The notes under the pieces are model-generated. The model saw only the letters and a program-made list of their open reading frames with translations, did not search any database and was not told where the DNA came from. Source: Ruminococcus albus 7 = DSM 20455 (GTDB lineage: Bacteria; Bacillota; Clostridia; Oscillospirales; Ruminococcaceae). From it: 32,000 bases of DNA. Below are positions 4,843-32,000 of the stretch, one piece after another. The DNA lies in NCBI RefSeq assembly GCF_000179635.2, contig NC_014833.1:960001-992000 (forward strand), in the 5' to 3' direction. Both the position numbers and the translations under genes were made by a program. The stretch's first letter is position 1; each line of letters begins with the position of its first letter.

Positions 4843-4871
4843 TTGACAGACGCTGTGAAATATAGTATAAT
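4843..4871 (+). promoter_or_regulatory. Consensus sigma-A promoter at the head of the biosynthetic operon
   Basis: TTGACA (4843-4848), an exactly 17-nt spacer, then TATAAT (4866-4871). Both hexamers are perfect consensus. The predicted TSS is ~4877-4879, which leaves a ~260-nt leader before the first cluster CDS (ATG 5138). Confidence 0.7.
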
Positions 4872-4898
4872 TATTACCGTTGATTTATCATGTGTTAG

Positions 4899-4915
4899 AG
4901 TTAGTTAAGTCTAAC
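4899..4915 (+). promoter_or_regulatory. Leader palindrome copy 1 (AGTTAGTTAAGTCTAAC); candidate operator or RNA hairpin
   Basis: GTTAG-N6-CTAAC inverted repeat at about +21 to +38 relative to the predicted TSS. It is identical at 15 of 17 positions to the copy at 5085-5101. An extra GTTAG half-site lies immediately upstream (4894-4898). Confidence 0.5.
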
Positions 4916-5084
4916 TGACATTCTGAAATGCGGCTCGGCTTGGTGGATCTCATGGTCGGGACAGGAAACTGACAAAAGATGCTGTATGGAAATGTATCAC
5001 TCGGTCACGGTATGTGGGGGTAAAATATGAGGTTTTTGATCTCTGCCATTGAGCCGCTTGTGTCGTAGGTTCAGCAGATGCGCT

Positions 5085-5101
5085 AGTTAGTTAATACTAA
5101 C
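5085..5101 (+). promoter_or_regulatory. Leader palindrome copy 2 (AGTTAGTTAATACTAAC); candidate operator or RNA hairpin
   Basis: Same GTTAG-N6-CTAAC inverted repeat, 186 nt downstream of copy 1 and ~18 nt upstream of the GGAG Shine-Dalgarno (5120-5123) of the first cluster gene. Confidence 0.5.
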
Positions 5102-5137
5102 CAAATCTATAGCCAAAAAGGAGTGGATATCGGTTCA

Positions 5138-5908
5138 ATGGATCAAAACATAAAAAAATGGTTTCCGTTTTCTACATACGACATTACAGACGATCACAGG
5201 GAGAAACTGATCTGCTTTCACTATGCAGGAGGGAGTGCTTCTGTTTTCAGGCAGTGGACGCTTGAGCCGCATGGTTTTAATGTTCTCTGTGCCGAGCTGC
5301 CCGGAAAGGGAACGAGAACAGGCGAAGCATTTGTAACTGATATAAAGGACTTGTTGGAACCGCTTTGCGCTGCGGTAGATGCAGTTGTGGAAAATGGAAA
5401 GTACACGCTGTTCGGACATAGTATGGGTGCGGCGATCGGATTCTATGTGGCAGACCGCATGACAAAAAATTACGGAAAACAGCCTTCGTGTCTTATCGTT
5501 GCCGGAAGACAGGCACCCGATACAGAAAACGAAGGAGAGTTCAAAAGCTGGATGAGCGATGATGCTTTGATAAAGGAGATGCGGATGTACGGGGGAACAC
5601 CGGATGATGTCCTTGAAAACAAGGAACTGATGGATATTCTGATCCCGCGGATACGCAAGGACTACGAATTGAACGATACGCTCATTTATCATGGTGAGAA
5701 GCTGCATATTCCTATTGTGGCACATTCAGCTTTGGAAGACAAAGGAGCGACTCCGGATATCATGGAACACTGGAGTGCCATGACAACAGGCAAATTCTCG
5801 ATCAGGAGTTTTGAGGGACGGCATTTCTGGGTCACGGACGATGAAACTTATTTTCTGCAAATTCTGAAAGAATTGGAAGGGACGAATCATGGAAATTCTG
5901 AAAATTGA
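5138..5908 (+). CDS. Type II (editing) thioesterase, alpha/beta hydrolase
   Basis: Track ORF 5123..5908 begins at a GTG that overlaps the SD, so I prefer ATG 5138 (GGAG at 5120-5123). Motifs: LICFHYAGGSASVFRQW (oxyanion/N-terminal TEII motif), nucleophile elbow GHSMG (5414-5428), C-terminal EGRHFW (catalytic His). About 256 aa, the typical TEII size. Confidence 0.85.
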   Translation: MDQNIKKWFPFSTYDITDDHREKLICFHYAGGSASVFRQWTLEPHGFNVLCAELPGKGTRTGEAFVTDIKDLLEPLCAAVDAVVENGKYTLFGHSMGAAIGFYVADRMTKNYGKQPSCLIVAGRQAPDTENEGEFKSWMSDDALIKEMRMYGGTPDDVLENKELMDILIPRIRKDYELNDTLIYHGEKLHIPIVAHSALEDKGATPDIMEHWSAMTTGKFSIRSFEGRHFWVTDDETYFLQILKELEGTNHGNSEN

Positions 5909-6830
5909 TCATCTAAAAAAAGAATTCAAGGATATGACAGCTGTCAACGGGCTGGATCTTACTATCCAGGAGAAGGATGTTCACGGTATACTTGGACCGA
6001 ATGGTGCCGGAAAAAGTACAACGATCAACTGTATACTTGGATTATTGGGGTATGAGGAAGGATCTGTGACATTTGCAGGTGGAGAATCTATTCGTAAATG
6101 GGGAAAGAATATAGGATATGTACCGCAGGATCTGGCGATCTATCCCGATCTTACTCCTACCGAAAATATTCGTTTTTTCTGTTCACTTTACGGATTCAAG
6201 GGTAAAGAACTGGAAGAACGTGTTACAAAGGCTTTGGATTTTGTAGGGCTTACAGATGTCAAGGATAAAAAATCAGGCGAGTTTTCGGGGGGCATGAAAA
6301 GACGTCTGAATATGGCGTGCGGTATTGCACACAGTCCGAAACTGATCATAATGGATGAACCGACAGTCGGCATTGATCCTCAGTCTAGAAACCGTATACT
6401 TGAAAATGTCCGCACGCTGAATGAACAAGGTGCAACTATTCTTTATACGACGCATTATATGCCTGAGATCGAGGAGATCTGTAATCGTATCACGGTCATT
6501 GATCATGGCGCACTGGTAGCAACAGGAACCAAAGAAGAAATAATGAACCGTATGGGAACAGATCAGATGATGAATCTTTCCTTTGCTGAGGGTAAAGGAG
6601 ATATGGATGCGTTTGTTGCTGAAGCTTCTCAGATCGATGGGATCCACCAGACCGATCCTGATGGCTGGAACTGCAAGATCCGCCATGATAAAAAGACTGT
6701 TGTTCTCAATAAGGTGATCGATGCTGCGATACGCAGCGGTCTGGAAATTGAACATATCACGAATGAAGAACCGTCACTGGAAGAGATATTCCTTATGCTG
6801 ACGGGCAAGGAACTCAGAGATCAGAAATAA
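5889..6830 (+). CDS. ABC transporter ATP-binding protein (partner of the two ABC-2 permeases)
   Basis: Walker A GPNGAGKST, signature FSGGMKRRL, Walker B LIIMDEPTVGIDP, H-loop TTHYM, followed by a ~90-aa C-terminal accessory domain. ATG 5889 overlaps the TEII 3' end by 20 nt, consistent with translational coupling. Confidence 0.9.
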   Translation: MEILKIDHLKKEFKDMTAVNGLDLTIQEKDVHGILGPNGAGKSTTINCILGLLGYEEGSVTFAGGESIRKWGKNIGYVPQDLAIYPDLTPTENIRFFCSLYGFKGKELEERVTKALDFVGLTDVKDKKSGEFSGGMKRRLNMACGIAHSPKLIIMDEPTVGIDPQSRNRILENVRTLNEQGATILYTTHYMPEIEEICNRITVIDHGALVATGTKEEIMNRMGTDQMMNLSFAEGKGDMDAFVAEASQIDGIHQTDPDGWNCKIRHDKKTVVLNKVIDAAIRSGLEIEHITNEEPSLEEIFLMLTGKELRDQK

Positions 6831-6845: not shown

Positions 6846-7988
6846 ATGTTCTGGCTGTTATGGAAAAAAGAAATAAAAGTATTCTTTACTAATAAAGGAA
6901 ATCTCGTATTTATGATCCTCCTTCCGATCCTGCTGATCTCGATATTCAGCTTTGCACTCGGTGACTATATCAAGGGGGATTATGGCACATTTAAAAATGG
7001 TCAGGTGTTTTACTTGCAGGATGGTGCCACGGATCAGATGAACAGCCGATTTGATGCGATTTCCAAAAAGATCACGGAACAGACTGGTGTTTCGTTTACG
7101 GAAGTGACAGATGCTGAGCAGGCGAAGAAGGATGTGGAATCAAGCAAAGCTTATGGTCTGATCACGATCGGCAGTGAGTCGTTCTCCTATTTCCGTTCAT
7201 CGTTCAATGAACCTCAGGGCGGACAACTGGTAAGGACTTTGTTCACGGAGCTTGCCAGGGACGGTGTGACATCTGTAGAAACAACATCGGGAAACGCTCC
7301 GTCTATCAAACGTACTGTGATTGAAGGCAGTCATCTGGATTCAAAAGTGTATTACACTTTTGCGGCACTGACGTTTTCAATACTTTTCATGGGTGTTCTT
7401 GTCGGACATTCTGTCTTTGACGAAAAAGAACTTGGTACGCTCACAAGGATAAGGATGTCCAAAGCAGGTGTCAGAATTGTTGTTGTTGTCAAGATCCTGA
7501 CCGGTATCCTGTGTGGAGCTGGGCAGATCCTTTCTGCGTTTGTCTTTTCTAATCTTGTGCTTAAAGTAGATTGGGGGGATAAGCTGCCGCTGATACTGCT
7601 GGTATTGCTTTGCCTGGTGACACTCAGTTCAACATTCGGAGCAGTAGTGGGTAGTTTTGCACCTAACAAATCCATGTGTCAGAGTACTGTCATGATGACA
7701 ACCATGCTCTGCGGATATCTGGGCGGAGCTATCACTCCGTTGTATCTTCTTGAGAATATGCCGATCCTTGGTTATATTGTTAAGATCAGTCCGCTTTACT
7801 GGACTAACCAATCTATGACCTACCTGTACAACGGTGTTGTTAACAGCAAATTCGGTATTACGATTAGTGTGCTTCTGGGTCTGACAGCTCTGCTTCTGAT
7901 CGTGTATGCAATATTCACAGCTAAGTTATCGGTCAATGTAAGTACACCTGTTGCTAAAACAGTGAAAAAGGAGGGAAAGACGGCATGA
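6846..7988 (+). CDS. ABC-2 type transporter permease (exporter subunit 1)
   Basis: 380 aa. An N-terminal TM helix (LVFMILLPILLISIFSFAL) is followed by a ~150-aa extracytoplasmic loop and then ~5 hydrophobic helices. This is the typical ABC-2/YhgE-like topology. AAGGTAGG SD lies upstream. Confidence 0.8.
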   Translation: MFWLLWKKEIKVFFTNKGNLVFMILLPILLISIFSFALGDYIKGDYGTFKNGQVFYLQDGATDQMNSRFDAISKKITEQTGVSFTEVTDAEQAKKDVESSKAYGLITIGSESFSYFRSSFNEPQGGQLVRTLFTELARDGVTSVETTSGNAPSIKRTVIEGSHLDSKVYYTFAALTFSILFMGVLVGHSVFDEKELGTLTRIRMSKAGVRIVVVVKILTGILCGAGQILSAFVFSNLVLKVDWGDKLPLILLVLLCLVTLSSTFGAVVGSFAPNKSMCQSTVMMTTMLCGYLGGAITPLYLLENMPILGYIVKISPLYWTNQSMTYLYNGVVNSKFGITISVLLGLTALLLIVYAIFTAKLSVNVSTPVAKTVKKEGKTA

Positions 7989-9013
7989 AAAATATTATCC
8001 GTAATACTGTGCTGATCTTTCGGAAGAATAAGGAGTTTATCTATCTTATTACGATTCAGCCGGTCATGATCTTTCTGCTGATGTCCTTTCTGCTGCCGTA
8101 TTCCACAGCGCACAATATCGCTGTCATAAATACAGACGGCGGTGCGGCGAGCGCTGCGATAGAGGAATCTGTAAAACGTCTGGAGGGTGTAGAATTTCAG
8201 AACGTTAAGTTGGAGGATGCTGCAGAAAAACTGCTTTCCTCTAATATTGAACTGGCGGTGGTTATACGTGAGGGTACTGATGCTGATGATCCACAGGTAG
8301 AGATAATGAGCCTTGGAAATTCCGAAGTCGAACGTTCTGTGACGCTTTGTGTGGAGCAGGCACGTGAAGAAAATCCTGACAGCAGTTTGACAGAAGTCAA
8401 TTCTGTTAAAAAGAAGGGCATGACAGTTGCTAATTCTCTGGGATTCATGATCTTCAAGACGCTGACGTCTGCGAATCTGCTGGCAGCCCTTATTATTCAG
8501 GAGCGCAACCGTCGTATGCGTGACCGTATTCTTTTGAGCAAGACCACAACAGGCGTCTACCTCGGCGGTATGGCAATGGTCTATCTGTTCTTTATGATGA
8601 TCGGATCGGTAGTATATTATCTGGCAGGTCTGTTATTCCGATTTGATTTCGGTATGAGGCATTCGATCGGATTCCTGCTGGTATTGTTTACGGCTAATGT
8701 ATTATCGGTCACACTTTATCTTTTTGCATCGACACTGGTCAAGAAAGAGGATTCACTCTGGCCGCTGGCATCATTTGTGATCTTGCCTATGTCACTGTTT
8801 TCGGGCGTTCTGTTTCCGTATGAATTTATGCCGAAGGCGATGAAGGCAGTTGGTGCATTTATGCCGCAGCGATGGATCGCACACGGGATAGAGTCGATCC
8901 AGGAAACTGGTTCTATAGCAGCAGGTATCCCGGATATGGCTTTGGTGCTGGGACTTTCGGCACTCCTGTACATTGTGGCTGTTATCCGTACAAAGCGGAT
9001 CCAGCCTTCCTGA
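7985..9013 (+). CDS. ABC-2 type transporter permease (exporter subunit 2)
   Basis: 342 aa with the same topology as the previous gene (TM1 IYLITIQPVMIFLLMSFLL, soluble loop, 5 C-terminal TM helices). ATGA start/stop overlap with the upstream permease (7985-7988). GGAGGG SD at 7970-7975. Confidence 0.8.
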   Translation: MKNIIRNTVLIFRKNKEFIYLITIQPVMIFLLMSFLLPYSTAHNIAVINTDGGAASAAIEESVKRLEGVEFQNVKLEDAAEKLLSSNIELAVVIREGTDADDPQVEIMSLGNSEVERSVTLCVEQAREENPDSSLTEVNSVKKKGMTVANSLGFMIFKTLTSANLLAALIIQERNRRMRDRILLSKTTTGVYLGGMAMVYLFFMMIGSVVYYLAGLLFRFDFGMRHSIGFLLVLFTANVLSVTLYLFASTLVKKEDSLWPLASFVILPMSLFSGVLFPYEFMPKAMKAVGAFMPQRWIAHGIESIQETGSIAAGIPDMALVLGLSALLYIVAVIRTKRIQPS

Positions 9014-9056: not shown

Positions 9057-10634
9057 ATGGTTAAAGATTATGAAGCAGCAGGCTATTGGGAAAAGAAGAC
9101 CCTCTGGGACAGACTTGAGGAGTGGAAAAACAGCTATGCAGATAGATGTGCATTGGTGGATGAAGATATCCGTATCAGCTATCAGCAATTGTATGACCAC
9201 GCACTGCAGTATGCTGCAGCATTTGCGGCAGACGGTATACACGAAGGAGATACTGTTGCGGTACAGCTTCCTAATTGCGCAGCGTTTGTGGAAATGGTGT
9301 TCGGCTTGTTCCGGATAGGTGCAGTTCCTATCTTTGTTTTGCCGGCGCACCGTGAAAAAGAGATAACAGGTATTTTTAATGCGGCTTCTCCGAAGGCATA
9401 CATAACTGCGAGAACTTTTTTGGGCTTTGATTATACAGCTATGGCAGAACGAATCCTGAAAGAGCGTTCTGATCAGCAGATAAGATACTATGTTGCGGAT
9501 GAACTGCAAAACACAGCAAAGCTCGCTGATGTGACAACACTTTCCTCTGACGGACCTTGCTACAGGGATACAGCATTTCTGCTGTTATCAGGTGGAACAA
9601 CAAATACCCCTAAACTGATCCCCAGGACGCATTGTGACTATGCGTATAATTTCCGTATGGCTGCAGAGAAAAGCTGGCTGGATTCGGACAGTGTCTATCT
9701 GGTGACACTTCCGATCGAGCATAATTTCCCGTGGGGAATGCCGGGTGTACTGGGAACCCTTTCTGTAGGCGGCAAAGTAGTTATCGCCAAAACATCGAGC
9801 TTTGACGAAGTTTTTCCGCTGATAGAGGAGGAGAAGGTAACTATCACCGCAGCTGTACCGGCTGTCCTTCAGACCTGGCTGGAAGCACTGGAATGGGAAG
9901 ATTCCTATGATCTGGGATCGCTGCGACTGATCCAGGTGGGAGGTGCAAAGCTTCTCGATTCGATAGCAAGAAAAGTCAGACCTGCTTTTAATTGTACCTT
10001 ACAGCAGGTGTTTGGCATCGCTGAGGGGCTGATCACTTTTACATCTCCCGATGATACGGAGGATATAATCACCACCTGCCAGGGCAAACCGTTGAGTGAA
10101 GGCGATGAGATACGAATTGTTGATGAGCAGGAGCAGGATGTTGAAGATGGTGAATTCGGACAGCTTCTTATGAAAGGGCCTTACACTATACGCGGCTATT
10201 ACGGATGCCCTGAATTCCAATCGGATATTTTTACTGAGGACGGATTTTTCCGTACAGGTGACAAGGCGTGTATCACTAAAGAAGGGAACCTGCTGGTGGA
10301 CGGTCGTATTACTGATCAGATCAACCGCGGAGGAGAAAAGGTAATGCCCACGGAGATCGAGGAACTTCTGCTGGAGCATGAAGCTGTACAGGAAGCGATC
10401 GTTGTCCCTGTCCCTGACGAACAGTTCGGTCAGAAAAGCTTTGCTTTTCTGAAATGCAGCCGTGAAGTATCTTTTGCAGAGGTGTATGAATTTTTAAAGT
10501 CCAGAAGACTTGCAAGATACAAATATCCTGACTATATCCGCTTTTTGGACAGGATACCTCTTACCAATATGGGAAAAACCAATCGCGCAGAATTAAAGAA
10601 AATGGCAGTGGAGGACATAAATGAAAGAACTTGA
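9057..10634 (+). CDS. Aryl-acid adenylating enzyme (DhbE/EntE/YbtE family, stand-alone A domain)
   Basis: Track ORF 8973..10634. I prefer ATG 9057, 6 nt after GGAGGAGG (9043-9050). The N-terminus MVKDYEAAGYWEKKTLWDRL is typical of this family. Motifs: LLSGGTTNTPKLIPRTH (A3), HNFPWGMPG (9720-9746, specificity region), QVFGIAEG, FRTGD, GRITDQINRGGEKV (A8, family hallmark), PLTNMGKTNRAELKK (A10). Confidence 0.85.
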   Translation: MVKDYEAAGYWEKKTLWDRLEEWKNSYADRCALVDEDIRISYQQLYDHALQYAAAFAADGIHEGDTVAVQLPNCAAFVEMVFGLFRIGAVPIFVLPAHREKEITGIFNAASPKAYITARTFLGFDYTAMAERILKERSDQQIRYYVADELQNTAKLADVTTLSSDGPCYRDTAFLLLSGGTTNTPKLIPRTHCDYAYNFRMAAEKSWLDSDSVYLVTLPIEHNFPWGMPGVLGTLSVGGKVVIAKTSSFDEVFPLIEEEKVTITAAVPAVLQTWLEALEWEDSYDLGSLRLIQVGGAKLLDSIARKVRPAFNCTLQQVFGIAEGLITFTSPDDTEDIITTCQGKPLSEGDEIRIVDEQEQDVEDGEFGQLLMKGPYTIRGYYGCPEFQSDIFTEDGFFRTGDKACITKEGNLLVDGRITDQINRGGEKVMPTEIEELLLEHEAVQEAIVVPVPDEQFGQKSFAFLKCSREVSFAEVYEFLKSRRLARYKYPDYIRFLDRIPLTNMGKTNRAELKKMAVEDINERT

Positions 10635-13600
10635 AGCCAAACAATATCTGTTGGATCTGTTGCCTGCGCATACAGAGATAACTGACGACACAAACCTCAT
10701 AGAAGCAGGACTGGATTCGCTGAGTATCATGAAGCTTAACAGCATCTGGCGCAAAGCAGGTTCAAAAGTATCATTTGCAAAGCTTATCTCTGATCCGTTT
10801 TGGAGTGCCTGGAGAAGCTATCTTAACTTTGAGTCAGATACCTCATCGGCAGATCAGTCTCTACAGTCTGCATCTTCCGAGGTAAATGATCCGTCCGCTC
10901 CGTTTCCTCTTACACAAGTGCAGTATGCATACTGGGCAGGCAGACAAAAACATCAGATCCTTGGGGGATTTGGGTGTCATTGTTATGTCGAACTGGATGG
11001 TACGGATATCGACACGCAGCGTCTGGCAAAGGCATGGTCACTGCTGTTGATGCGGCATCCGATGCTGAGGGTGAGATTTTTAGATGACGGTACCCAGCAG
11101 TATATGTCTGAGCCATACAATAAGGATATTACTATATATGATCTTCGTGATTGTGATCCTGATCAGGCAGAGCAGGAATTGATTTCGATCCGTTCAGGTC
11201 TCAGTCACAGACAGTTCAGGATAGAACTTGGTGAAGTTGCGGGTCTTGGTATAGCACTCCTTCACAATAACAGACATCGTATTTTCTTTGATGTTGATCT
11301 GCTTGTGGCGGATGTGCATTCTTTCCAGATCATTCTGAATGATCTTGGCAGACTATACCGTGAACCGATAAATACCATATCTGACTTTCATTTTGGAACG
11401 TATCTCCGTAAGGAAGCAGAGCAAAATCGAAGTGCATTGGAAAATGACCGCAATTACTGGATGCAGAAGATTGATACTATGCCTCTGGCACCGGTGCTTC
11501 CGCTTGCAAAAGAGCCGTCATCGGTCAAGGATGCCTATTTTACAGCGAGAAAACACAAACTTCCGGAAAAAGTATGGAAGTGCCTTAAAGCTCAGGCATC
11601 GAAGTACGGTGTGACGCCTTCGATGGTATTGCTTTGTGTCTACGGGTTAGGTATAGCTAACTATTCGGAACAGCCTGATTTTCTGATCAATATCCCGACT
11701 TTTAATCGTAATACCGAGATCAGTGGTATCGAGGATGTTGTTGCAGATTTTACAAGACTGAGCTTGCTGCCTTTTCATAAGAAGGATGGTGAGAGTTTTG
11801 CGGAAACTGTCAGAAGAACAGCAGCAGATTTCTATGAGATCATGGAACATCCCGCATACTCAGGTGTAGAGATAATTCGAGAACTGAATAGGAAATACGG
11901 TCAGGAAATGCCTGTTGCACCTGTAGTATTTGCCTGCAATATTGAAACATCACTTACAGATCATATTGTTGAAACGACCCTTGGAACGTGGAATTATATC
12001 ATCTCTCAGACACCTCAGGTATGGCTCGATTTTCAGATGTATGAGGATCACGGTTCACTGCTGCTGAAATGGGATAGTGTACGTGAATTATTTGATCCGG
12101 AATTCCTGGATCTGATGTTTGCAGATCTGACGGCATTCCTGGAGAAAGCAGCTGAATGCGACTGGAACAGTGAGATACTGTGCAGAAGGCATGATCTGCT
12201 GCAGGTGGACATCCCACAGGATGCAAATATCTACAGCGACTATGAGATACATGAAGGATTTTTTGAAACAGCCGTAAACGATCCCGATCTGCCAGCACTT
12301 ATCAATGCTGTAACAGGTGAGGAACTGTCCTATGGACAGGCAGCAAAAGCGGCTCTCGGTATCGCACACGAACTGCAGGAGCGGGGATTCTGCGGAGAAA
12401 AGATCGCGGTCATGATGCCGCGTGGTATACGTCAGATAATTGCGATACTTGGCATAGTTGCATCAGGAAACTGTTATGTTCCTGTAAATCCGGAATATCC
12501 CCATGATAGGCAGGCGTATATTTTTGAGAAGGCTTCAATACAGTATGCGCTTACGTCAGAGATCTGCAAGGATAATATCAGCGACAAGGTGCAGGCTCTG
12601 ATCACCGATAATATCGAACCTGCCGAAGAGATCGCAGACTGGAAACACTCTTCTCCCGACAGTTCGGCATATATTATTTTTACCTCCGGTTCTACAGGTA
12701 ATCCCAAAGGAGTGGAGATCAGCCATCGCAGTGCTGTAAATACGATCCGTACGATCAATGAACAATATGGTATAGAGAAGAATGACAGGGTACTTGCTGT
12801 TTCGGCAGTGGATTTCGATCTTTCTGTATACGATATCTTCGGGACATTGAGTGCTGGAGCAGGTCTGGTCATACTTGATGATGCACATAAAAAAGATGCA
12901 TTGTTCTGGCATCAGACAGTGACACGCTTTGGTGTTACGTTCTGGAATTCTGTACCTGCTTTTGTGGAAATGCTCTGTATTGTTACCAAAGAGCAGGATC
13001 GTCCTCTGGATAGTCTGCGGCATATTCTTATGTCCGGTGACTGGATAGCTGTTGATCTTCCCGAACGCTTGCAGAAGGTTGCGCCGAATGCGAAAGTAGT
13101 ATCACTTGGCGGAGCAACAGAAGCTGCTATATGGTCGAATTTCTTCGATGTTAAGCTTCCGATCCCTTCAGGCTGGCGGTCTATTCCTTATGGAAGTGCT
13201 CTAAAGTATCAGAAATACCGTGTAGTTGATGAAAAAATGCACGATTGCCCTCCTTATAAAAAGGGAGAATTACTGATCGGCGGCATTGGTCTGGCTATTG
13301 GATATGTAGGAGATGAAAAACTCACAGCAGAACGTTTTATATACGATCAGGGTGAACGCTGGTATAGAACAGGTGACTTTGGACGTTACTGGGCAGACGG
13401 AACTATCGAATTTCTTGGCAGAAATGACGATCAGGTAAAACTTAACGGCTACAGGATCGAACTTGGCGAGATAGAACAGCATCTCAGCCGCTATAAAGGG
13501 ATCCGTGAAGCCAAAGCTGTTGTGATCACCAGAAATGCAGGTCAGAGTCTGACGGTATTTATTTGTCCTGAAAATCCTGATGATACACCCGATGAAGCTG

Positions 13601-19681: not shown

Positions 19682-19683
19682 GG

Positions 19684-21148: not shown

Positions 21149-21931
21149 ATGTTTCTGCGTCTTAAAAAATTGGATATGAATAAATGGATTAATCACATAG
21201 TAGATCACAAGGAAAGCAGGATAAATTTGTTCTGCTTTCCTCATGCCGGTGCCAGTTCCGCATTTTTTGCAAAATGGGGATCTTATTTTACGGAGCAGAT
21301 CAATCTCCGAACGATCCAGTACCCGATGAGGGATCTGCGATATCAGGAGCCAATGCCCGGATCTATTCAGGAAATGGCACAGAATCTTGCGATGGAAGGC
21401 GCAGAACTTTTCTGTGAACCTTTCGCTTTTCTCGGACATTGTGCAGGCGGGATCATAGCCTATGAAACGGCAGCCGCACTGAAACGTTACTTTAATATTG
21501 AACCTGCATACCTGGTGATATCTTCGGCGATCTCTCCGGGAACAACGCATCTTGTATCTACCGCTGCCATGAGCGATGAAGAATTCTGTCGACACTACAG
21601 TGTGACGGAGGATATGTTCGGCGGGAATGAGGATCTGATGCGATTTTTTCTGCCGATCATGCGTGCCGACTATGAATTGTGTGAGCGTTATGAAAGCGGT
21701 ATAGCAGAACGTCTGGAATGCCCCATATTCGCTGTGTGCGGAGCACAGGATCCACAGATCGAACGTATCGAAGATGTTGAGGATTGGCAGAATTATACTG
21801 ACGGTCCATTTGAACTATGCCTGACAAAAGGAGATCACTTCTATTTTCAGAATGATCCCGGAACTATTTGCAGGAAGATCGAAGAGAAACTGCTTGCCTG
21901 CAATGCAGGATATGAGATCGACGAAATTTAA
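21149..21931 (+). CDS. Type II thioesterase-like alpha/beta hydrolase with a Cys in the nucleophile elbow (GHCAG)
   Basis: Track ORF 21029..21931 overlaps the ATPase gene, so the real start is probably ATG 21149 (AAGGAG at 21131-21136, 12-nt spacing) or ATG 21176. Motifs: LFCFPHAGASSAFFAKW, elbow LGHCAGG (Cys codon TGT 21440-21442 where TEIIs carry Ser), CGAQDP, KGDHFYF (His). Confidence 0.8.
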   Translation: MFLRLKKLDMNKWINHIVDHKESRINLFCFPHAGASSAFFAKWGSYFTEQINLRTIQYPMRDLRYQEPMPGSIQEMAQNLAMEGAELFCEPFAFLGHCAGGIIAYETAAALKRYFNIEPAYLVISSAISPGTTHLVSTAAMSDEEFCRHYSVTEDMFGGNEDLMRFFLPIMRADYELCERYESGIAERLECPIFAVCGAQDPQIERIEDVEDWQNYTDGPFELCLTKGDHFYFQNDPGTICRKIEEKLLACNAGYEIDEI

Positions 21932-25414: not shown

Positions 25415-27127
25415 ATGAGCTTTTTGAAAAGAGTGGCGCAGTTAACGCCGGAACAGCAGAGGGTACTCAAGGAAAAGGCTGAAACAGACGGTGCACGGTA
25501 CGGTTTGTATCCGCTTTCTCCGGAACAACGCAATATGTGGTTTATCTATCAGTATCAGAAGCAGGATATTAGCTATGTCAGCCGCTATCAGATCTCATTT
25601 GAGGGGCATTATAGCATTGATATCATTGAGAGATCTTTCCGCTGCCTGTTAAAAAAGCACAAGATCCTGCGTACGGTTTATCCGGTCATAGCCGGTAAGC
25701 CTTTCCAGATGGTTCAGGATGCAGACAGTGTACCACATCGGGTCGTACATCTGTCAGGCAGAGCGGATGAGGATGCAAAGCAAATCGAGTCAGAAGCGAC
25801 AACGGTTTTCGATCTTGCTGCAGAGATCCCGCTTCGTTACACACTGTTTATCAGAAGTGATACATCTGCAATGCTTCTGCTGTCTATACATCATATTGCA
25901 CACGATGGCTGGTCACTGAGTATTCTGCGGGATGAATTATTTTCGGTATACAGAACGCTGGCAGCCGGAGAAATTCCCGAATTGGAGCCTGAACCTTTCA
26001 GCTATCTTGATTATGTGTGCTACACTAATTCAGAAGCGGCAGATTATGCAGAGGAGCGTGCATACTGGAATACTCATTTTGATCCGGAAATCTGTGAGAT
26101 ACCGTTTCAGGAAAGTGGATATCCGGCAGAAAACGGAAATGTCATAAAGCAGCTTAGTTTCCCTATGTATCAGAAGCTTAAAACCTATGCGTCTGAAAAC
26201 AAGCTCACGCTCAGTGAGATATGTTTTACCGCTTTGGGAGAGTTGTTGTGCAAGGGAAGCGGATGCGGGAAGATAAACATCGGGATGCCCGTCCTGAACC
26301 GCGAAAAGAAGTATCTGAACACTGTTGGATATTTCTCAAATACGACCGTATTTCAATATGATCAGCAGCCGGAAACCGATGCCGATGAACTGCTGCGGCG
26401 AGTACATCTCCAGATGGCTGATGTACTTAATGCTTCACGCATACCTCTGGAGGAACTGGTAAAGGACGTTGCTGTTAAACGCACGACCAAAAAACGGCTG
26501 TTCAATGTCATTTATAGTTTTCAGGGAAAGAATTATTACGGCGGTCAGCGTAAGGAACAACTTCCGGATGCACAGGCAGAATTCTGTATTTTCTACAGTG
26601 AACGAAAGGCATCCACCGATTTTGCTATGACTTTTCATGTCATTGAAGAGGAAAACGGTATTCGATTCGGTATAGGATATCAAGGTATCTACATTTCAGG
26701 GGATACAGCAGAAAAAATGTTGGAACAGTATGTTAGTATATTGAGTGCGCTTTTGAAGAATGAACGGCTCTGTGCGGAAGATGTACGTCAGAATGTTCAT
26801 CTGCGCCTTGCTGTTCCGGAACTCAATAAGCATACCGAAACCTCGGAAAATACCGCAACTATGCAGAAAATATACAGAATATGGGTTAAGGTACTGGGTG
26901 AGATCCCTTACGAACCTGAAAAACCGTTCTTTTCGCTGGGCGGAACATCCTTCCAGAGTTTTCAGGTTCTGGAGGAGCTCAATGCAGATTTCGGGATTCA
27001 GCTGTCTATAGCAGATTTCTTTCAATACAGTTCGATCGCTGAACTTGCCAATCTTGTCGATACACGCATCGGAACGACTTCTGACGGTTCTGATGCTTCA
27101 GATGAGATGGAGAGCCTTATGTTCTGA
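25415..27127 (+). CDS. Free-standing NRPS condensation-thiolation (C-T) didomain protein without an A domain
   Basis: The track ORF starts at GTG 25409. ATG 25415 lies 10 nt after GAGG. C domain ~25500-26750 (LSPEQRNMWFIYQ as C1; LRTVY; HHIAHDG at 25889-25909; VGYFSNTTVF as C5). T domain ~26860-27070 (FFSLGGTSFQS, Ser 26948-26950). No adenylation motifs anywhere in the protein. Confidence 0.85.
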   Translation: MSFLKRVAQLTPEQQRVLKEKAETDGARYGLYPLSPEQRNMWFIYQYQKQDISYVSRYQISFEGHYSIDIIERSFRCLLKKHKILRTVYPVIAGKPFQMVQDADSVPHRVVHLSGRADEDAKQIESEATTVFDLAAEIPLRYTLFIRSDTSAMLLLSIHHIAHDGWSLSILRDELFSVYRTLAAGEIPELEPEPFSYLDYVCYTNSEAADYAEERAYWNTHFDPEICEIPFQESGYPAENGNVIKQLSFPMYQKLKTYASENKLTLSEICFTALGELLCKGSGCGKINIGMPVLNREKKYLNTVGYFSNTTVFQYDQQPETDADELLRRVHLQMADVLNASRIPLEELVKDVAVKRTTKKRLFNVIYSFQGKNYYGGQRKEQLPDAQAEFCIFYSERKASTDFAMTFHVIEEENGIRFGIGYQGIYISGDTAEKMLEQYVSILSALLKNERLCAEDVRQNVHLRLAVPELNKHTETSENTATMQKIYRIWVKVLGEIPYEPEKPFFSLGGTSFQSFQVLEELNADFGIQLSIADFFQYSSIAELANLVDTRIGTTSDGSDASDEMESLMF

Positions 27128-27177: not shown

Positions 27178-30100
27178 ATGTTATATCAAGATAAAATCGC
27201 AGTGATCGGGATGGGCGGAGTATTTCCCGGTGCTGATGGATTAGAAGAATTTCAAACCCAACTGGAAAAAGGAGTGGATTGCATCCGTCCTATACCCCGG
27301 ACAAGACTGGATCTTGTCGGACTGCACGACCCGTCGCTATATGTTGAGCGCGGATATATAGATGACATCGCATCGTTTGATCATGAGTTCTTTGGTTATT
27401 CTAAAGGTGAAGCGGTCCTGCTAAATCCGTCTCACCGTATTGCGCTGCAAACTGCAGTCCACACAATGGAATATGCCGGTTACACCAGAAAGAAACTGCG
27501 TGATTCCAATACAGGTGTGATACTGGCTGTTGGGAATAACAGCTATCTGCAAACGTTGGGCGATACTTCCGGTGCTGCTTATAATGCCAATGAAGCAGGC
27601 ATGGCAGCTGCACGTATTTCCGATTTTTACAAACTGCGCGGCAAGTCATATACGCTTGATACCACCTGTTCATCTTCCCTGATGGCTATACACCAGGGTG
27701 TTATGGAACTGGAATCCGGAGAGTGTGATCTTATCCTCTGCGGTGGTGTCAATATACAGATCGAACCATATACCAAAAAAGAATTTGAGAATACATCCTT
27801 TGGCATAATTGCAGATTCTTACCGAAGCAAGTCATTTGATTCACAGGCATCGGGCACAGGTGTGGGAGAAGGCTGCGCGATGGTACTGCTCAAACGAATG
27901 GAAGATGCTGTGCGGGACGGAGATCATATCTATGGTGTGATCCTTGGATCGGCTGCCAATCATAACGGCGGCAGATGCAACAGCCTTATTGCTCCGAGTT
28001 CTTCAGCACAGACCGAGTGTATCATACGTGCATGGGAACGCAGCGGCATTGATCCTGCGAAGATAGGCATGGCAGAAGCCCATGGTACCGGAACGAAGAT
28101 CGGAGATCCCATCGAAATGAAAGGTTTGCAGGATGCCTTTGCTCATTTTGGGGTGATGAAAGAGCATAGCTGCGCCCTTACCGCAGTCAAAAGTAATATC
28201 GGACATCTTGGCATGGCAGCAGGAGCTGCTTCATTTATCAAAGCACTCATTGCCATATATGCTGAGAAGAAATATCCGCTGGTGCATTTTAAGCAGGGAA
28301 ATCCTCAGATCGCATGGGAGCATTCAGTTGTTTATCCGTGCAGACAAACGGAGAAATGGAACGATGCGGAACGATATGCGTGTGTCAATTCATTGGGATT
28401 ATGCGGTACGAATGTCCATATGGTCATAGGTAACGCACCAGAAAAACTTGAAAAGCCAAAACATCTCACAGAGAATATACTGAAACTAAGTGCATCATCA
28501 CCTGAAACTCTGCGTGATTATGCAGCGGCATATGCAGGATTCATTGACACTCATCCTGATATATGTCCGACTTCATTGGCATTCTCAGCAAATACAGGAC
28601 GGGATGATGCAAACTTCCGTACGGCATTTTCTTTCAGAGATCTGGAACAGCTTCGTAAAAAACTGTCAGAAGATATCGGAGGCTCCAAAACATCATTCAG
28701 TCAGTTTTATCTGCTTGTTGATGGCAGTGTTTCAGAAATGACGGTACTTGAACATCTTGCCGCGTGTGTACCGCAGATGGCACATCAGTTTGACTTGCTT
28801 AAAAAGGCACACAGCAGTCTGACACCTGACGGGACACAGCTGCTTCTGTATACGGCACTTGTGAACAGTTTCAAGGTAATGGGACTTAACTGTCGCGGTA
28901 TCGTGGGAATACGCGGAGGACAGGCGATCGTGAATCTCATCAATGGCAAGATCACACCGGAACAGGCTGCAGATGGCGTTCGGGATATGTCAAAAAGCGA
29001 TTTTGACCGCGAGAAATTTATGGCATTCGCTGAAAAAAAGACTGATGCACTGCTGATCGGATTTGGAAAAGACAGTGAGATGATGCGCCTTCTGGAAGGA
29101 CATGAACGAATATTGCAAGTCACACAGGATGATCCGCTTTTACTGTTTGAAACGCTGTACTGCGGAGGCTTATATATCGACTGGGATGCATTTTATCACG
29201 AAAAATTGGAAAGAACATCAGTGCCGGCATATCCGTTTGCAAAGAAAAAATGCTGGCAGTATGTGAAAGCAGAAACTGTACAGTCAGCATCACTTGCAGA
29301 GGCAGAAGTTATGCAGAAAAGTAAAGATCCTGTAGAACAGTATGTGTACAGGCTTTTTATTGAAAACCTGAAACTGGATGATGTAGGACTTGAGGATGAT
29401 TTCTTTGAACTTGGCGGAAATTCTATCATGTCACTTAAAATCATCCAGAAACTCAAGGAACGCTATGGCGATACCATAGAATTGGATGATCTTTATGAAT
29501 ACGCCACCATACGGGAGATCGCCGAACTTATAAAGGAACAGTCTGATGTATCGGTGCAGGCAGATGGCAAAGCACCTTCCGTCAATGATCCCTATCAAAT
29601 GAAAAAAGCACCTGATATGGAGTATTATCCGGTATCGGATGCCCAGAAGCGTATGTGGATCATGACTATGACCAACAGCAGTGATACCGCTTACAATATG
29701 CCTGCTTGCATGGAGATCAATGGTAAACTGGATGTCAAGAGGTTCGTGGATGCTTTTGAACGTATCGCACAGATACATGAGAGTTTCCGTACAACATTTC
29801 ATCAGGTGGAGGGCAGTGTTTTACAGAAGATCGAGGATTCAGCACATTTCAAGGTGGAACTTCTCGATGATCCTGAACTGGATGTCCGTACACTAATCCG
29901 ACCGTTTGATCTTGAGCATGGTCCGTTGATGCGTGTTGTGCTTATCAGGCGTGGGCAAGATAGGTATACAGCATTTCTGGACATTCATCATATCATAGGT
30001 GACGGGACTTCTATGGGGATCATGTTGAGGGATTTCCTGGATCTGTATCAAGGACATGAGGTGAAAGAACCTCCATACAATTACCGCGACTTTACCCTCT

Positions 30101-30939
30101 GGCAAAATGAATTCAAACAGTCCGCATTCAAGCTGAAACAGGATGATTACTGGAGAGAAGAACTGCGGGATATAGTTAATTTTGAGTCTACACTGCCATT
30201 GGATTTCGATCGTCCGAAAGTTCGTACAAATGAAGGTGATCTCTATGAGATGGTATTTGATGCAGAGTTTACGAGAAGGCTCAAGCAATTTGCAGGTGAT
30301 CAGAAATGCACTCTGAATATTCTGCTGTTGTCCGCGCTGTTTCTGGTGCTGGGCAGATGCAATCATCAGGATACTGTTGTGATAGGTATGCCTATCTCAG
30401 GCAGACACGGTGATGATCAGCATCGTATAATCGGAATGTTTGTGAATATGCTCATTATCAAGATTCATCTGGATCCGGATATGTCATATCTTCAAATGCT
30501 GGATTCACTTAAAAGGAAAGCATTCCGTGCATACGAGAATCAGGATTCACAATTCAATGATGTAACAGAGATGATGGAATTTGAGCGCGAAGCCAACAAA
30601 AATCCATTCTTTGATCTGGTATTTGCATTGCAGGAGATCGATATCCCGCGTCTGGAATTGCCTGAACTGACATTCACTTCACAAAATCTGGATATGTCCT
30701 CGAAATTTGATCTGGTTTGTACCGCTTATGGAATGGGCGATGAGATCAGACTTTCGATGCGCTACTGGATCCGTATTTTCAAGGAGGAGACCGTTAAGCA
30801 GATCATGCAGGATTTCCGAGAAATCCTCGGTGAGATCCTGGATTCACCGGACAGAAAACTGTCCGTGATCGGAATGCGGAGCATGGAGAAGCTGCAGAAG
30901 GACACCACTTTTGATGAGATCAATTTTTCATTTGATTAA
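27178..30939 (+). CDS. Hybrid PKS-NRPS protein KS-(vestigial AT)-T-C
   Basis: 1253 aa; AGGAGAAAAAGG SD upstream. KS ~27190-28440 (KIAVIGMGGVFP; DTTCSSS with Cys 27667-27669; EAHGTGTKIGD; SNIGHLGMAAG). AT-like remnant ~28680-29000 (FYLLVDGSVSE where ATs have FxFxGQGSQ; GIRGGQ at 28906-28923 where ATs have GHSxGE), followed after only ~90 aa by the post-AT motif VPAYPFAKKKCW. Carrier domain ~29330-29540 (FFELGGNSIMS, Ser 29422-29424). Complete LCL-type C domain ~29610-30900 (YPVSDAQKRMW; FRTTF; HHIIGDG at 29986-30006; YRDFTLW; IGMFVNMLIIK; NKNPFFD). Confidence 0.85.
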   Translation: MLYQDKIAVIGMGGVFPGADGLEEFQTQLEKGVDCIRPIPRTRLDLVGLHDPSLYVERGYIDDIASFDHEFFGYSKGEAVLLNPSHRIALQTAVHTMEYAGYTRKKLRDSNTGVILAVGNNSYLQTLGDTSGAAYNANEAGMAAARISDFYKLRGKSYTLDTTCSSSLMAIHQGVMELESGECDLILCGGVNIQIEPYTKKEFENTSFGIIADSYRSKSFDSQASGTGVGEGCAMVLLKRMEDAVRDGDHIYGVILGSAANHNGGRCNSLIAPSSSAQTECIIRAWERSGIDPAKIGMAEAHGTGTKIGDPIEMKGLQDAFAHFGVMKEHSCALTAVKSNIGHLGMAAGAASFIKALIAIYAEKKYPLVHFKQGNPQIAWEHSVVYPCRQTEKWNDAERYACVNSLGLCGTNVHMVIGNAPEKLEKPKHLTENILKLSASSPETLRDYAAAYAGFIDTHPDICPTSLAFSANTGRDDANFRTAFSFRDLEQLRKKLSEDIGGSKTSFSQFYLLVDGSVSEMTVLEHLAACVPQMAHQFDLLKKAHSSLTPDGTQLLLYTALVNSFKVMGLNCRGIVGIRGGQAIVNLINGKITPEQAADGVRDMSKSDFDREKFMAFAEKKTDALLIGFGKDSEMMRLLEGHERILQVTQDDPLLLFETLYCGGLYIDWDAFYHEKLERTSVPAYPFAKKKCWQYVKAETVQSASLAEAEVMQKSKDPVEQYVYRLFIENLKLDDVGLEDDFFELGGNSIMSLKIIQKLKERYGDTIELDDLYEYATIREIAELIKEQSDVSVQADGKAPSVNDPYQMKKAPDMEYYPVSDAQKRMWIMTMTNSSDTAYNMPACMEINGKLDVKRFVDAFERIAQIHESFRTTFHQVEGSVLQKIEDSAHFKVELLDDPELDVRTLIRPFDLEHGPLMRVVLIRRGQDRYTAFLDIHHIIGDGTSMGIMLRDFLDLYQGHEVKEPPYNYRDFTLWQNEFKQSAFKLKQDDYWREELRDIVNFESTLPLDFDRPKVRTNEGDLYEMVFDAEFTRRLKQFAGDQKCTLNILLLSALFLVLGRCNHQDTVVIGMPISGRHGDDQHRIIGMFVNMLIIKIHLDPDMSYLQMLDSLKRKAFRAYENQDSQFNDVTEMMEFEREANKNPFFDLVFALQEIDIPRLELPELTFTSQNLDMSSKFDLVCTAYGMGDEIRLSMRYWIRIFKEETVKQIMQDFREILGEILDSPDRKLSVIGMRSMEKLQKDTTFDEINFSFD

Positions 30940-30966
30940 ACCATTCAAATGATCCGGAGGTATTAC

Positions 30967-32000
30967 ATGAAACATTTATATGAACAAGAGGTACTGCTTT
31001 CTGATCCCGGCCTTCAGGATGAGATCAGTTTCTGGGAAGAGCAGTTTAAAGGTGAATGGGAACTGTCGGAGATAAGGGCAGAAGCAAACGAAAACGAAAT
31101 GGGTTTCCGTGAGATCCGTTTTGAACTTGAAGCGAAAGCTGCTCAGCGTCTTCACGAGATATGCAGAGGATCGGCACAGGCAGAATATATTGTTTTTCTG
31201 AGTATTGTATCTGTGCTGGTTTCACGCTATACAGCGCTCCCGGATGCGGCATTCAGTGTCCCTCTGATGACACATGATCCAGATCAGATAAACGATTATC
31301 TGCTGCTGCATACGGAGATCGATCCCACGGATACGCTTAAATCACTGCTTAAACGCGTCACAGCCAATATTAAAGAGCTGTACGCACATCAGAATGCACC
31401 ACTGCTGGCACTTCTGAAAAGAAACGGACGCATCAGCAGCAGCGAATATGTTATGAAGATCTGTGTGTGCAGTGAATTGCTGCAGGATAAAGGGATCTTT
31501 GAAAAACATGGATGCGGGGTAGGTTTTTCGATACTGACGAAGGATCATAATACGACAGCGGGTATCACTTATCGCAAGGATTTGTATCCTCAGTCCATGA
31601 TGGATACAATGGCAGATGTTTTGCAGGATCTTTGCTGTGAGATGATCATGCATCCTGATCAGCGTGTGAAGGATCTCCGACTGCTGGGAGATGAAAAAAT
31701 CACAGACAGTATGTTCTGGGGTGAGCAGTTTCAGTATGAACCTGTCGGATTTTTGCAAAAATTCCGTGAACACGTACAGGCACATCCAGAAAAAAATGCT
31801 TTGATAGACGATACCTGCAGCTATACATACGAAAAGTTGGACCGATTTTCAAATCAGATCGCTCATTTTGTTAAAAACTATGCTTCGGGACAAACGGAGG
31901 AGCGCGTTGGTATACTGATAGAAAACTCCGTGCTGCAGGCGGCTGCTGTACTGGGTGTCATGAAATCCGGATGCGTATATGTGCCGATCGATGTCAAGCT
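30967..32000 (+). CDS. NRPS, 5' part only (C-terminal half of a C domain followed by the start of an A domain); continues beyond the window
   Basis: Not in the track because there is no stop in the window. ATG 30967 lies 7 nt after GGAGG (30955-30959) and is open for 344 codons to the edge: MKHLYEQEVLLSDPGLQDEISFWEEQFKGEWELSE…AQAEYIVFLSIVSVLVSRYT…LYAHQNAPLLALL…DLYPQSMMDTMADVLQDL. This matches the C4-C7 half of a C domain, with no HHxxxDG. The A domain then begins: HPEKNALIDDTCSYTYEKLD (A1) and MKSGCVYVPIDVK (A2). Track ORFs 31046..31252(-) and 31342..31785(-) are antisense shadows. Confidence 0.8.
   Translation, partial: MKHLYEQEVLLSDPGLQDEISFWEEQFKGEWELSEIRAEANENEMGFREIRFELEAKAAQRLHEICRGSAQAEYIVFLSIVSVLVSRYTALPDAAFSVPLMTHDPDQINDYLLLHTEIDPTDTLKSLLKRVTANIKELYAHQNAPLLALLKRNGRISSSEYVMKICVCSELLQDKGIFEKHGCGVGFSILTKDHNTTAGITYRKDLYPQSMMDTMADVLQDLCCEMIMHPDQRVKDLRLLGDEKITDSMFWGEQFQYEPVGFLQKFREHVQAHPEKNALIDDTCSYTYEKLDRFSNQIAHFVKNYASGQTEERVGILIENSVLQAAAVLGVMKSGCVYVPIDVK

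Follow-up and report, generated by a model that had tools for sequence, protein, structure and literature searches.

The 32,000 nucleotides of the Ruminococcus albus 7 genome analysed here (NCBI RefSeq contig NC_014833.1, positions 960,001 to 992,000; hereafter, the window) carry a large biosynthetic gene cluster that combines nonribosomal peptide synthetase (NRPS) and polyketide synthase (PKS) genes. From a promoter at position 4843 to the right edge of the window, 14 co-directional genes on the forward strand follow each other with overlaps or with gaps of at most 94 nt (Table 1); both the perfect promoter and the gene order described in an earlier note on this DNA were confirmed. The genes further downstream were read from a contig that is identical to the window over an overlap of 4823 bp (L001) and from a 99%-identical metagenomic contig (L005). 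As the earlier note had expected, the cluster extends to the right, where eight more genes follow, including a phosphopantetheinyl transferase (PPTase), a thioesterase (TE) of the releasing type, and a reductase-like gene. Judging from this layout, the window comprises the first 14 genes (27 kb) of one operon of R. albus 7 with 22 genes and a length of about 46 kb.

The cluster is real, intact, and an orphan. Its core is of an already known type, whereas the extension of this core matches no characterised pathway; what is new is that an equibactin-type core has been re-plumbed into a long PKS/NRPS line that lacks acyltransferases (ATs). R. albus 7 serves as a model for cellulose degradation in the rumen, its genome sequence has been public since 2011, and antiSMASH would flag the cluster; to our knowledge, no nonribosomal or polyketide product is known from this strain. 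Full-text searches of the literature found no description of the cluster or its product. In rumen genomes, few biosynthetic gene clusters contain PKS genes (75 of 14,814; PMC8241843).

Genes and domains were called with Pfam and NCBIfam profiles, by motif reading, and by fold comparison, and for every gene the results agree with the manual domain calls made earlier. The starts of three genes were revised (ArA, 9057; TE1, probably 5138, which is favoured by the ribosome-binding site; PKS1, probably 21965). Exact protein matches in R. albus 7 (ATCC 27210) exist for PKS2 (ADU21404), the C-T protein (ADU21403), and the S component of the energy-coupling factor (ECF) transporter (ADU21398). A search of the window with Rfam, which also covered the 250-nt leader, was negative for RNA families.

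Table 1. Features of the cluster in the window and downstream of it (KS, ketosynthase; A, adenylation; C, condensation; Cy, heterocyclisation; T, carrier; MT, methyltransferase; cMT, C-methyltransferase; KR, ketoreductase; TEII, type II thioesterase; ORF, open reading frame)
Feature	Position	Strand	Evidence or remark
Sigma-70-type promoter, TTGACA-17-TATAAT, operon start	4843..4871	+	12/12 consensus; next best regional sites 9/12
Operator-like palindrome, AGTTAG-N6-CTAACT	4899..4916	.	~28 nt downstream of -10 box
Palindrome, copy 2	5085..5102	.	~36 nt upstream of TE1 ATG
TE1, TEII, GHSMG	5138..5908	+	PF00975 1.3e-37; ORF open from GTG 5123
ABC ATPase, DrrA-like, exporter	5889..6830	+	ABC_tran and DrrA1-3_C
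ABC-2 permease 1	6846..7988	+	ABC2_membrane_3 8.7e-29
ABC-2 permease 2	7985..9013	+	ABC2_membrane_3 9.5e-21
ArA, stand-alone aryl-acid adenylating enzyme, DhbE/YbtE/PchD clade	9057..10634	+	Profile and PDB matches
NRPS1, 2548 aa, ArCP-Cy1-A1(Cys)-T1-Cy2-A2(Cys, MT-like insert after A8)-T2	10621..18267	+	Pfam/NCBIfam and motifs
Cy1, DLLVADVHS	10903..12210	+	Motif and profile
Palindrome, copy 3, intragenic in Cy1	11645..11662	.	Codon position +1024 of NRPS1
Cy2, NNIIYDGYS, first Asp replaced by Asn	14056..15309	+	Motif and PDB matches
MT-like insert in A2, degenerate S-adenosylmethionine (SAM) loop ILELGTRVQ	16708..17820	+	Methyltransf_12 5.5e-7
ECF S component, MptD/Trep_Strep family	18362..18976	+	PF09605 2.6e-34; TIGR02185 above cut-off
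ECF T component, CbiQ	18980..19681	+	PF02361 2.8e-12
ECF duplicated ATPase A-A'	19684..21132	+	Two ABC_tran domains
TE2, TEII family, Cys nucleophile, GHCAG	21149..21931	+	PF00975 5.8e-35, 122 bits
PKS1, KS(AACATS/HGTAT/NIGH)-linker-cMT(VMEIGGGTG)-ACP(DSLS), without AT	21965..25402	+	ORF open from 21935
C-T didomain protein, HHIAHDG, without A domain	25415..27127	+	Profiles and motifs
PKS2, KS(TTCSSS/HGTGT/NIGH)-linker-putative vestigial AT(GIRGG)-T-C(HHIIGDG)	27178..30939	+	Profiles, motifs, model
NRPS2, 5' part, C-terminal-lobe C remnant, then A	30967..32000	+	Full protein on L001
T-C protein, HHLYSDE	Downstream of window		L001/L005
TE3, Ser nucleophile, GHSxG	Downstream of window		L001/L005
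C-remnant-A-T protein, code DAKNIGVSVK	Downstream of window		L001/L005
KS3, free KS with linker, 675 aa	Downstream of window		L001/L005
A-KR-T protein, 1298 aa, keto-acid type	Downstream of window		L001/L005
EqbM-like saccharopine-dehydrogenase-family protein (Sacchrp_dh_NADP), 360 aa	Downstream of window		L001/L005
Third Cy module, TubC_N-Cy(EFIIADWTS)-A(Cys code)-MT remnant-T	Downstream of window		L001/L005
Sfp-type PPTase	Downstream of window		L001/L005

There is consistent evidence for an aryl-thiazoline front end. The adenylase ArA scores 534 bits against the profile of 2,3-dihydroxybenzoate (DHB)-AMP ligases (TIGR02275), under the cut-off of 723, and has its top PDB matches in the salicylate-AMP ligase 5WM2 (487 bits), DhbE (472 bits), and PchD (425 bits). 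Its code, hand-read from alignments to these structures as N-F-M-A-Q-G-V-I-T-K, has the salicylate pattern (Phe236, Ile330), but with Met at position 240, which is Cys in salicylate enzymes and Ser in DHB enzymes (codes tabulated in PMC3672683). The same position is occupied by Ile in the orthologues and by Cys in Sporomusa.

The codes of the A domains were obtained by alignment to GrsA, with the GrsA sequence itself, which returned its own code (DAWTIAAICK), as control. Both A1 and A2 of NRPS1 read DLYNLSLIWK, the Cys code, which is present in the A domains of all three Cy modules of the cluster. Despite the Asp-to-Asn replacement in its motif, Cy2 is a true heterocyclisation-class domain, given scores of 296 bits with BmdB-Cy and 289 bits with HMWP2-Cy1 as opposed to at most 69 bits with ordinary C domains; the motif of Cy3 is a D-to-E variant of DxxxxD. 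The MT-like insert in A2 is related solely to PKS C-methyltransferases in the PDB, and only weakly, and ELGTRVQ replaces the ExGxGxG of the SAM loop in an alignment to CurJ, so that the insert is probably not a working methyltransferase. With this evidence from domains and codes, the yersiniabactin/pyochelin-like front end proposed in the earlier note stands.

Between NRPS1 and the PKS genes lies a complete ECF importer, whose duplicated ATPase matches ECF_ATPase_1 (2e-93) and ECF_ATPase_2 (1e-87), each slightly under the cut-off. A word-indexed search with the S component returned five close relatives; the protein is 82% identical to its orthologue in a metagenomic cluster (L093) and 29% identical to the S component of a siderophore-type locus of Sporomusa. 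A simple cluster of Sporomusa also encodes the TEII that is the nearest match of TE1 (207 bits).

Proteins with the architecture of NRPS1 and identities of 36-41% are common among anaerobic Firmicutes. Their neighbourhoods share a core consisting of the adenylase, the NRPS1 homologue, an EqbM-like gene, a third module of the type TubC_N-Cy-A, the ECF S, T, and AA components, and a TEII. This core was found in Sporomusa ovata, Clostridium senegalense, Lacrimispora brassicae, and metagenome-assembled genomes (MAGs), in simple clusters that contain no PKS genes. The core is completed by an Irp3-like reductase and a third-module MT-T-TE in Sporomusa ovata and C. senegalense; Lacrimispora brassicae and a MAG instead have a free Cys-type TE together with a T-R reductase. 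A homologous equibactin cluster occurs also in the strict anaerobe C. kluyveri (PMC3672683), and a related cluster on a transposon of C. difficile RT023 has been termed a rare occurrence in anaerobes (PMC6814731). The earlier view that metallophore lines of this type are not the norm in strict anaerobes therefore needs correction. On the evidence of these genomes, the core is not exotic among anaerobes, and the unusual part is the extension.

The third module of R. albus is 46% identical over 985 aa to the TubC_N-Cy-A-MT-T-TE protein of Sporomusa, relative to which it has lost most of the MT domain and the whole TE. The EqbM-like proteins of the two organisms are 29% identical over their full length (E = 1e-42). 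In the cluster of Sporomusa ovata (L090), the adenylase is fused to a chorismate-binding, salicylate-synthase-like domain (6977-9957), seemingly split by a frameshift in the assembly, and genes for a DAHP synthase and for TonB and a TonB receptor are adjacent. A different substrate, aryl or acyl, is suggested for the adenylase of C. senegalense (L091, 5422-7011) by a Lys in place of Asn235 (HKFALSMPG), a residue that is invariant elsewhere. The free T-R protein (thioester reductase) of Lacrimispora and the MAG is encoded straight after NRPS1 (L094, 17762-19234; L095, 17847-19319), implying a release as aldehyde or alcohol in these clusters.

The extended cluster is present in only three lineages, R. 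albus and two others. One of these is represented by a fully syntenic metagenomic contig (L093/L007; identities of 63% for NRPS1, 82% for ECF S, and 51% for KS3); in the more distant relative (L088; 47% for NRPS1, 39% for KS3), a single KS-T-C-T protein replaces KS-cMT-ACP and C-T. In the 63% orthologue, a SAM synthetase gene (metK; L007, 20617-21798) is located between the third Cy module and the PPTase, which fits the three methyltransferase domains of the pathway; in the R. albus-type contig, the PPTase gene directly follows the third Cy module.

Because simple cores exist without PKS genes and the PKS block forms a contiguous insertion, the locus might in principle consist of two independent, adjacent clusters, one equibactin-like and the other an unrelated PKS/NRPS cluster. 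This seems very improbable, because the two parts are interlocked: the PKS/NRPS block is preceded on its 5' side by ArA, NRPS1, and the ECF genes and followed on its 3' side by the genes for the EqbM-like protein, the third Cy module, and the PPTase. Moreover, the third module lacks a TE and most of its MT domain, the co-directional genes are tightly packed behind a single promoter, one operator motif recurs across the locus, and the whole set has been kept together in three lineages.

The order of the genes is probably not the order of biosynthesis. All homologues of NRPS1, in simple as well as in extended clusters, end in xGEI or GII (...DEIGEI in R. albus), and in the simple clusters, the protein after NRPS1 starts with a TubC_N docking domain, a domain that binds the short C-terminal tail of an upstream protein. 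In the R. albus cluster, only the third Cy module, which is encoded 32 kb further downstream than NRPS1, has a TubC_N domain. The gene order of the L088 relative is NRPS1, ECF, EqbM-like saccharopine dehydrogenase, TubC_N-Cy-A-T, and Cys-type TE, followed by the PKS genes. The conserved tail, the sole docking domain, and the gene order of L088 together suggest that aryl-Cys-Cys-Cys, with three rings, is assembled before the first KS acts. We infer that NRPS1 feeds the third Cy module, not KS-cMT, and that the scaffold is an aryl-tris-thiazoline; a hand-off from NRPS1 to KS-cMT like that from HMWP2 to HMWP1, as previously proposed, is doubtful and probably wrong.

The extension contains three KS domains, all of which have retained the Cys-His-His triad. 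The MT domain of PKS1 has an intact glycine loop and its nearest relatives are PKS C-methyltransferases (CurJ, 99.5 bits). The full NRPS2 (1105 aa, C remnant-A-T; read from L001) has a Leu-like code (DAWFLGNVVK) and an MT domain inserted between A2 and A3. The A-KR-T protein matches the keto-acid-selecting depsipeptide module of PDB 6ULW with both halves (434 bits; A 331, KR-T 98) and McyG A with 390 bits; its A pocket lacks Asp235, and the code begins with T instead of D, although the alignment is uncertain at that point. In L005 (2079-4539), two ORFs of 206 and 605 aa stand for the C-remnant-A-T gene, which is a single ORF of 813 aa in L001 (19476-21917); the difference is due either to a polymorphism or to an assembly error.

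A dead AT had been claimed for PKS2, and of the tests made, only that of the fold was positive. The stretch of 226 residues from the KS-linker to the carrier shows no match to Acyl_transf_1 even at E = 10, and no more than 3 bits with a custom hidden Markov model of the AT built from 39 cis-AT homologues. However, an AlphaFold model of residues 370-730 (mean pLDDT 84) has an AT-like fold, with matches to the KS-AT didomains of CurL (E = 1e-12), DEBS, and ClbI and to isolated ATs (ZmaA; TM-scores of 0.43-0.50), although the alignment behind the model contained cis-AT proteins, which may have biased it. At the nucleophile elbow, GIRGG stands in place of GHSxG. Based on this model, we accept the region as a vestigial AT. 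Free-standing AT genes are absent from the 22 genes of the cluster and also from the bounded orthologue (L088/L089/L092), which is delimited by sugar-transporter genes at one end and by an integrase gene together with a TetR gene at the other. There are many cis-AT PKSs among the nearest outside homologues of KS3 (31-34% identity), which suggests that the ATs were lost through decay; a scan of GTDB species genomes with KS3 gave no relatives. The malonyl units may come from an AT outside the cluster, for which the housekeeping FabD is a candidate; the AT-less cluster of FK228 is served by FabD (PMC12994790).

Another peculiarity of the line is TE2, which belongs to the TEII family by its sequence and its alpha/beta-hydrolase core but lacks the standard Ser-His-Asp triad with GxSxG; TE1 and TE3 carry GHSxG. 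Its best PDB matches are RifR (100 bits), RedJ, and YbtT (65 bits). The Cys nucleophile is conserved in the orthologues in L093 and L088 and in the free TE beside the TE-less third Cy module of Lacrimispora and the MAG (L094/L095). Cys is found in 74 of the 179 aligned TE domains among the closest 150 representatives in a library of 1.8 billion proteins (P0246-P0395), so that Cys-type TEs form a sizeable clade; homologues of TE2 include tandem pairs of Cys-TEs at the C-termini of synthetases of 1500-2700 aa. The literature searched yielded no characterised member of this TEII clade; the Cys TEs characterised in publications belong to type I and make beta-lactones or beta-lactams (PMC6668435, PMC11298585). 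An origin of TE2 as the split-off TE of the third module was rejected, because it has no detectable similarity to the module-3 TEs of Sporomusa and C. senegalense. An aminoacyl shuttle of the SyrC/CmaE type was also considered for TE2, but its sequence places it in the TEII family, so that the analogy is functional only. TE2 would act at or after the third Cy module.

Several functions had been reported as missing from the window. The PPTase and a plausible releasing TE are encoded downstream, but the complete cluster lacks an aryl-acid synthase, an AT, an MbtH-like protein (no signature in a six-frame scan of all cluster loci), and a thiazolinyl imide reductase of the Irp3/PchG/YbtU/EqbF type, the last of which is absent also from both orthologues. 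An integrated (type I) TE is likewise absent from the complete cluster, which has three free thioesterases and the T-C protein instead.

Vestigial parts are real (the half C domain, the C remnant, the dead ATs, the MT remnants, and the variant Cy motif), and the C-remnant-A-T gene is split in one metagenomic variant. They might indicate a decaying cluster that forms no product or only a shunt product. We consider such decay improbable, because all large ORFs are intact over the ~46 kb in R. albus 7, and so are the catalytic motifs of the KS, C, A, T, and TE domains. The genes of both orthologous clusters (39-82% identity) are all intact as well, and the vestigial parts are likewise kept there at 39-63% identity.

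No regulator gene was found in the window, but the upstream region has a candidate operator. The palindrome AGTTAG-N6-CTAAC matches six times in the window (three sites, both strands), compared to 0.27 matches expected by chance. Further sites are located in the orthologues (L093, 198-213, 415-430, and 6948-6963; L088, 2353-2368, 6553-6568, and 19253-19268; L092, 10855-10870), and the motif occurs in none of 89 other loci (~1.5 Mb), which confines it to the three extended clusters. In L093, as in R. albus, two copies precede TE1 and one lies at the same NRPS1 codon (6948-6963). This intragenic copy comprises the same Leu (TTA) and Ala-Asn (GCT AAC) codons in L093 and is absent from the L088 orthologue; it may have a regulatory role within the gene or reflect no more than a coincidence of descent. 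In L088, two copies are situated 4 nt past TTGACA boxes, one in the intergenic region between the exporter and a divergent TetR gene and the other before the adenylase gene. The palindrome is probably the operator of a dedicated repressor, which would be of the TetR type in the L088 relative.

The reading that we favour, and consider reasonably probable, is that the operon is an expanded derivative of an equibactin/yersiniabactin-type aryl-thiazoline pathway, with a sulfur-rich product that is re-imported by the ECF transporter. By sequence analysis, the adenylase loads an aryl acid, presumably scavenged as in the case of equibactin, onto the ArCP of NRPS1, and the three Cys-specific Cy modules provide for three heterocyclisations. 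NRPS1 would dock via its xGEI tail on the TubC_N domain to give the aryl-tris-thiazoline intermediate. The EqbM-like NAD(P) oxidoreductase, an editing TEII, the Sfp-type PPTase, the ABC-2 exporter, and the ECF importer accompany this core. The intermediate would then be extended by KS-cMT-ACP, C-T, KS-T-C, a methylating Leu-type module, T-C, the third KS, and the keto-acid A-KR-T protein; either TE3, the free Ser-thioesterase, or the terminal C domain would release it. In one scheme that uses all parts, the chain would pass from KS-cMT-ACP via C-T and KS-T-C to the Leu-type module, the free KS would extend it onto the carrier of T-C, the C domain of T-C would esterify it to the hydroxy acid on A-KR-T, and TE3 would release the product, while the free A-T protein would serve the A-less carrier of C-T. 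The product would be exported and then, probably as a metal complex, taken up again by the ECF transporter.

That the product binds metal and is re-imported is about an even proposition or slightly better. A metallophore is suggested by the homologous core, by a ligand set of a phenolate and three N,S-heterocycles, and by the importer, which is kept in every relative and is the best-conserved protein; the function is plausible but unproven. The product may alternatively be an antibiotic or toxin, with a thiazoline-aryl pharmacophore and an ABC-2 pump for export and self-resistance, in which case the ECF transporter would import a precursor (e.g., the aryl acid) or be the relic of an ancestral siderophore cluster. 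Although we consider this unlikely, several of the following observations favour it, and most weigh against our own reading. The only regulator seen in a relative is the TetR gene beside the exporter in L088, with operators overlapping TTGACA promoters, and the exporter is DrrAB-like, with a DrrA-like ATPase, both of which are more typical of antibiotics. Searches of the promoter region gave no Fur or IdeR/DtxR box. The long tail of at least six additional modules, including the depsipeptide-type A-KR-T, is not siderophore-like, and a precursor importer would make sense in a cluster that has no aryl-acid synthase. Ferrous iron is soluble in the rumen, which makes the need for a siderophore questionable. 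In addition, the module order beyond the third Cy module is conjecture, the 11 carriers outnumber the 9 condensing domains, two carriers after KS domains have PCP-like GGxS motifs, and the Irp3/PchG-type reductase and the integrated TE of the characterised relatives are missing. By contrast, the importer behaves unlike a decaying relic, because ECF S is the most conserved protein between the orthologous clusters (82%, versus 63% for NRPS1 and 51% for KS3). The S/T/AA set lies beside every related cluster seen, one of which adjoins a TonB receptor, and the equibactin transporter of like type imports the iron-loaded product (PMC3672683).

A bolder version of the metallophore hypothesis, which we regard as a long shot, would be a hybrid metallophore of a new class from a strict rumen anaerobe. 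It would combine an aryl-tris-thiazoline head with a methylated polyketide-depsipeptide tail, would be ECF-imported, and would be made with AT-less PKS modules. The conserved Cys-TEII would be a transacylase instead of an editor (shuttling chains or amino acids between A-less carriers, or taking the place of an AT in the loading of extenders), and the aryl cap would come from plant phenolics. If true, the scavenging of the cap from plant phenolics in the rumen would link production to fibre degradation. If the product is indeed a metallophore, it would be chemically new, of obligate-anaerobe origin, and ECF-imported, and would provide a handle on the competition for metals in the rumen. The cluster itself is a compact natural experiment, in which a siderophore line with three rings became a far longer hybrid and lost its TE, reductase, and ATs on the way. 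The free Cys-type thioesterase was retained, a trait common to TE-less relatives, and its enzymology is testable in vitro.

Upstream of the operon, the window encodes a secreted CBM35-GH26 enzyme of the mannanase type (1019-2815, + strand) and a lipoprotein-like WG-repeat protein (2999-4513, - strand); an ORF at 77-514 appears spurious. Among species-representative genomes, the closest relatives of the GH26 protein are those of Ruminococcus MAGs (74-77% identity). Its dockerin, with the calcium loop DANCDGTVDLAD, is sub-threshold in Pfam (19.7 bits, cut-off 22.9). The earlier deduction of a strictly anaerobic, fibrolytic host from this gene is supported, the host being R. albus 7. The notion of a cellulosomal host needs correction: dockerin proteins are present in R. 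albus 7, but scaffoldins are lacking, and there is just a single putative cohesin (PMC4300822). The G+C content is 0.43-0.47 across the cluster and 0.38-0.44 upstream. A horizontal acquisition of the cluster is likely in view of this step, the phage-type integrase to the left of the 47% relative (L088, 389-1447), and the location of equibactin-type clusters on integrative conjugative elements (ICEs) and transposons in the literature; the TetR gene of L088 is on the same side as the integrase, and sugar-transport genes flank the other side.

Similarities to known systems differ between the two parts of the cluster. Where the PKS modules are concerned, the FK228 (romidepsin) dep cluster likewise has absent or vestigial cis ATs and no AT gene of its own, FabD supplying the function (PMC12994790). 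Colibactin ClbI and ClbK also have PKS modules with absent or vestigial cis ATs, and both are among the fold matches of the putative vestigial AT of PKS2. Products and gene content of FK228 and colibactin are unrelated to those of R. albus, and the likeness is one of mechanism only.

The core is of the equibactin/yersiniabactin type, and its closest characterised relative is equibactin (eqbA-N, Streptococcus equi ICESe2; PMC3672683, PMC8754150, PMC6814731), a comparison based on published descriptions and annotation of the Eqb proteins. Both share a salicylate-type adenylase, ArCP-Cy-A(Cys), three heterocyclisations, an ECF importer, an EqbM-family protein, a TEII, a PPTase, the lack of a salicylate synthase, and Firmicute hosts that include strict anaerobes. 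In S. equi, EqbM, a member of the saccharopine-dehydrogenase family, cannot be dispensed with, salicylate has to come from outside, as the cluster encodes no synthase, and eqbHIJ are needed for equibactin-dependent iron import (PMC3672683); eqbH, eqbI, and eqbJ are annotated as the ECF S, T, and duplicated-ATPase components (PMC8754150). The front end and the ECF genes of R. albus thus have a characterised precedent in Firmicutes. However, equibactin synthesis uses one A domain for three carriers, whereas each Cy module of R. albus has its own. The equibactin cluster also encodes the thiazoline reductase EqbF, YbtPQ-like ABC proteins, a regulator similar to DtxR, and a terminal TE, but no PKS; in R. 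albus, EqbF and the terminal TE are absent, and three KS modules and at least four further NRPS-type proteins have been added.

With yersiniabactin (HMWP2/HMWP1, YbtE, YbtU, YbtT), the R. albus line shares the aryl cap, the Cys code DLYNLSLIWK, Cy domains (289 bits with HMWP2 Cy1), an MT-like insert in an A domain, a PKS module with a C-methyltransferase, and a YbtT-related TEII. Yersiniabactin differs by its PKS module (KS-AT-MT-KR-ACP), which is equipped with an AT and a KR of its own and operates between the second and third rings, and by YbtU, YbtS, a terminal TE, and import via YbtPQ. In R. albus, the PKS modules, which have neither AT nor KR, probably act after ring 3, and additional modules come behind them. 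The pyochelin pathway (PchD, PchE, PchF, PchG) has a related adenylase (PchD, 425 bits) and the same logic of ArCP-Cy-A-T plus Cy-A(MT)-T, which is fused in a single protein in R. albus. R. albus lacks the PchG reductase, a terminal TE, and PchAB, and the insert in its second A domain is without a SAM loop, but it has added a third Cy module and the PKS/NRPS extension. The NRPS1 proteins of the simple clusters of Sporomusa, C. senegalense, and Lacrimispora are of like architecture (38-41% identity) and also have the xGEI tail; these clusters end after three rings, whereas the R. albus line continues with its PKS/NRPS extension.

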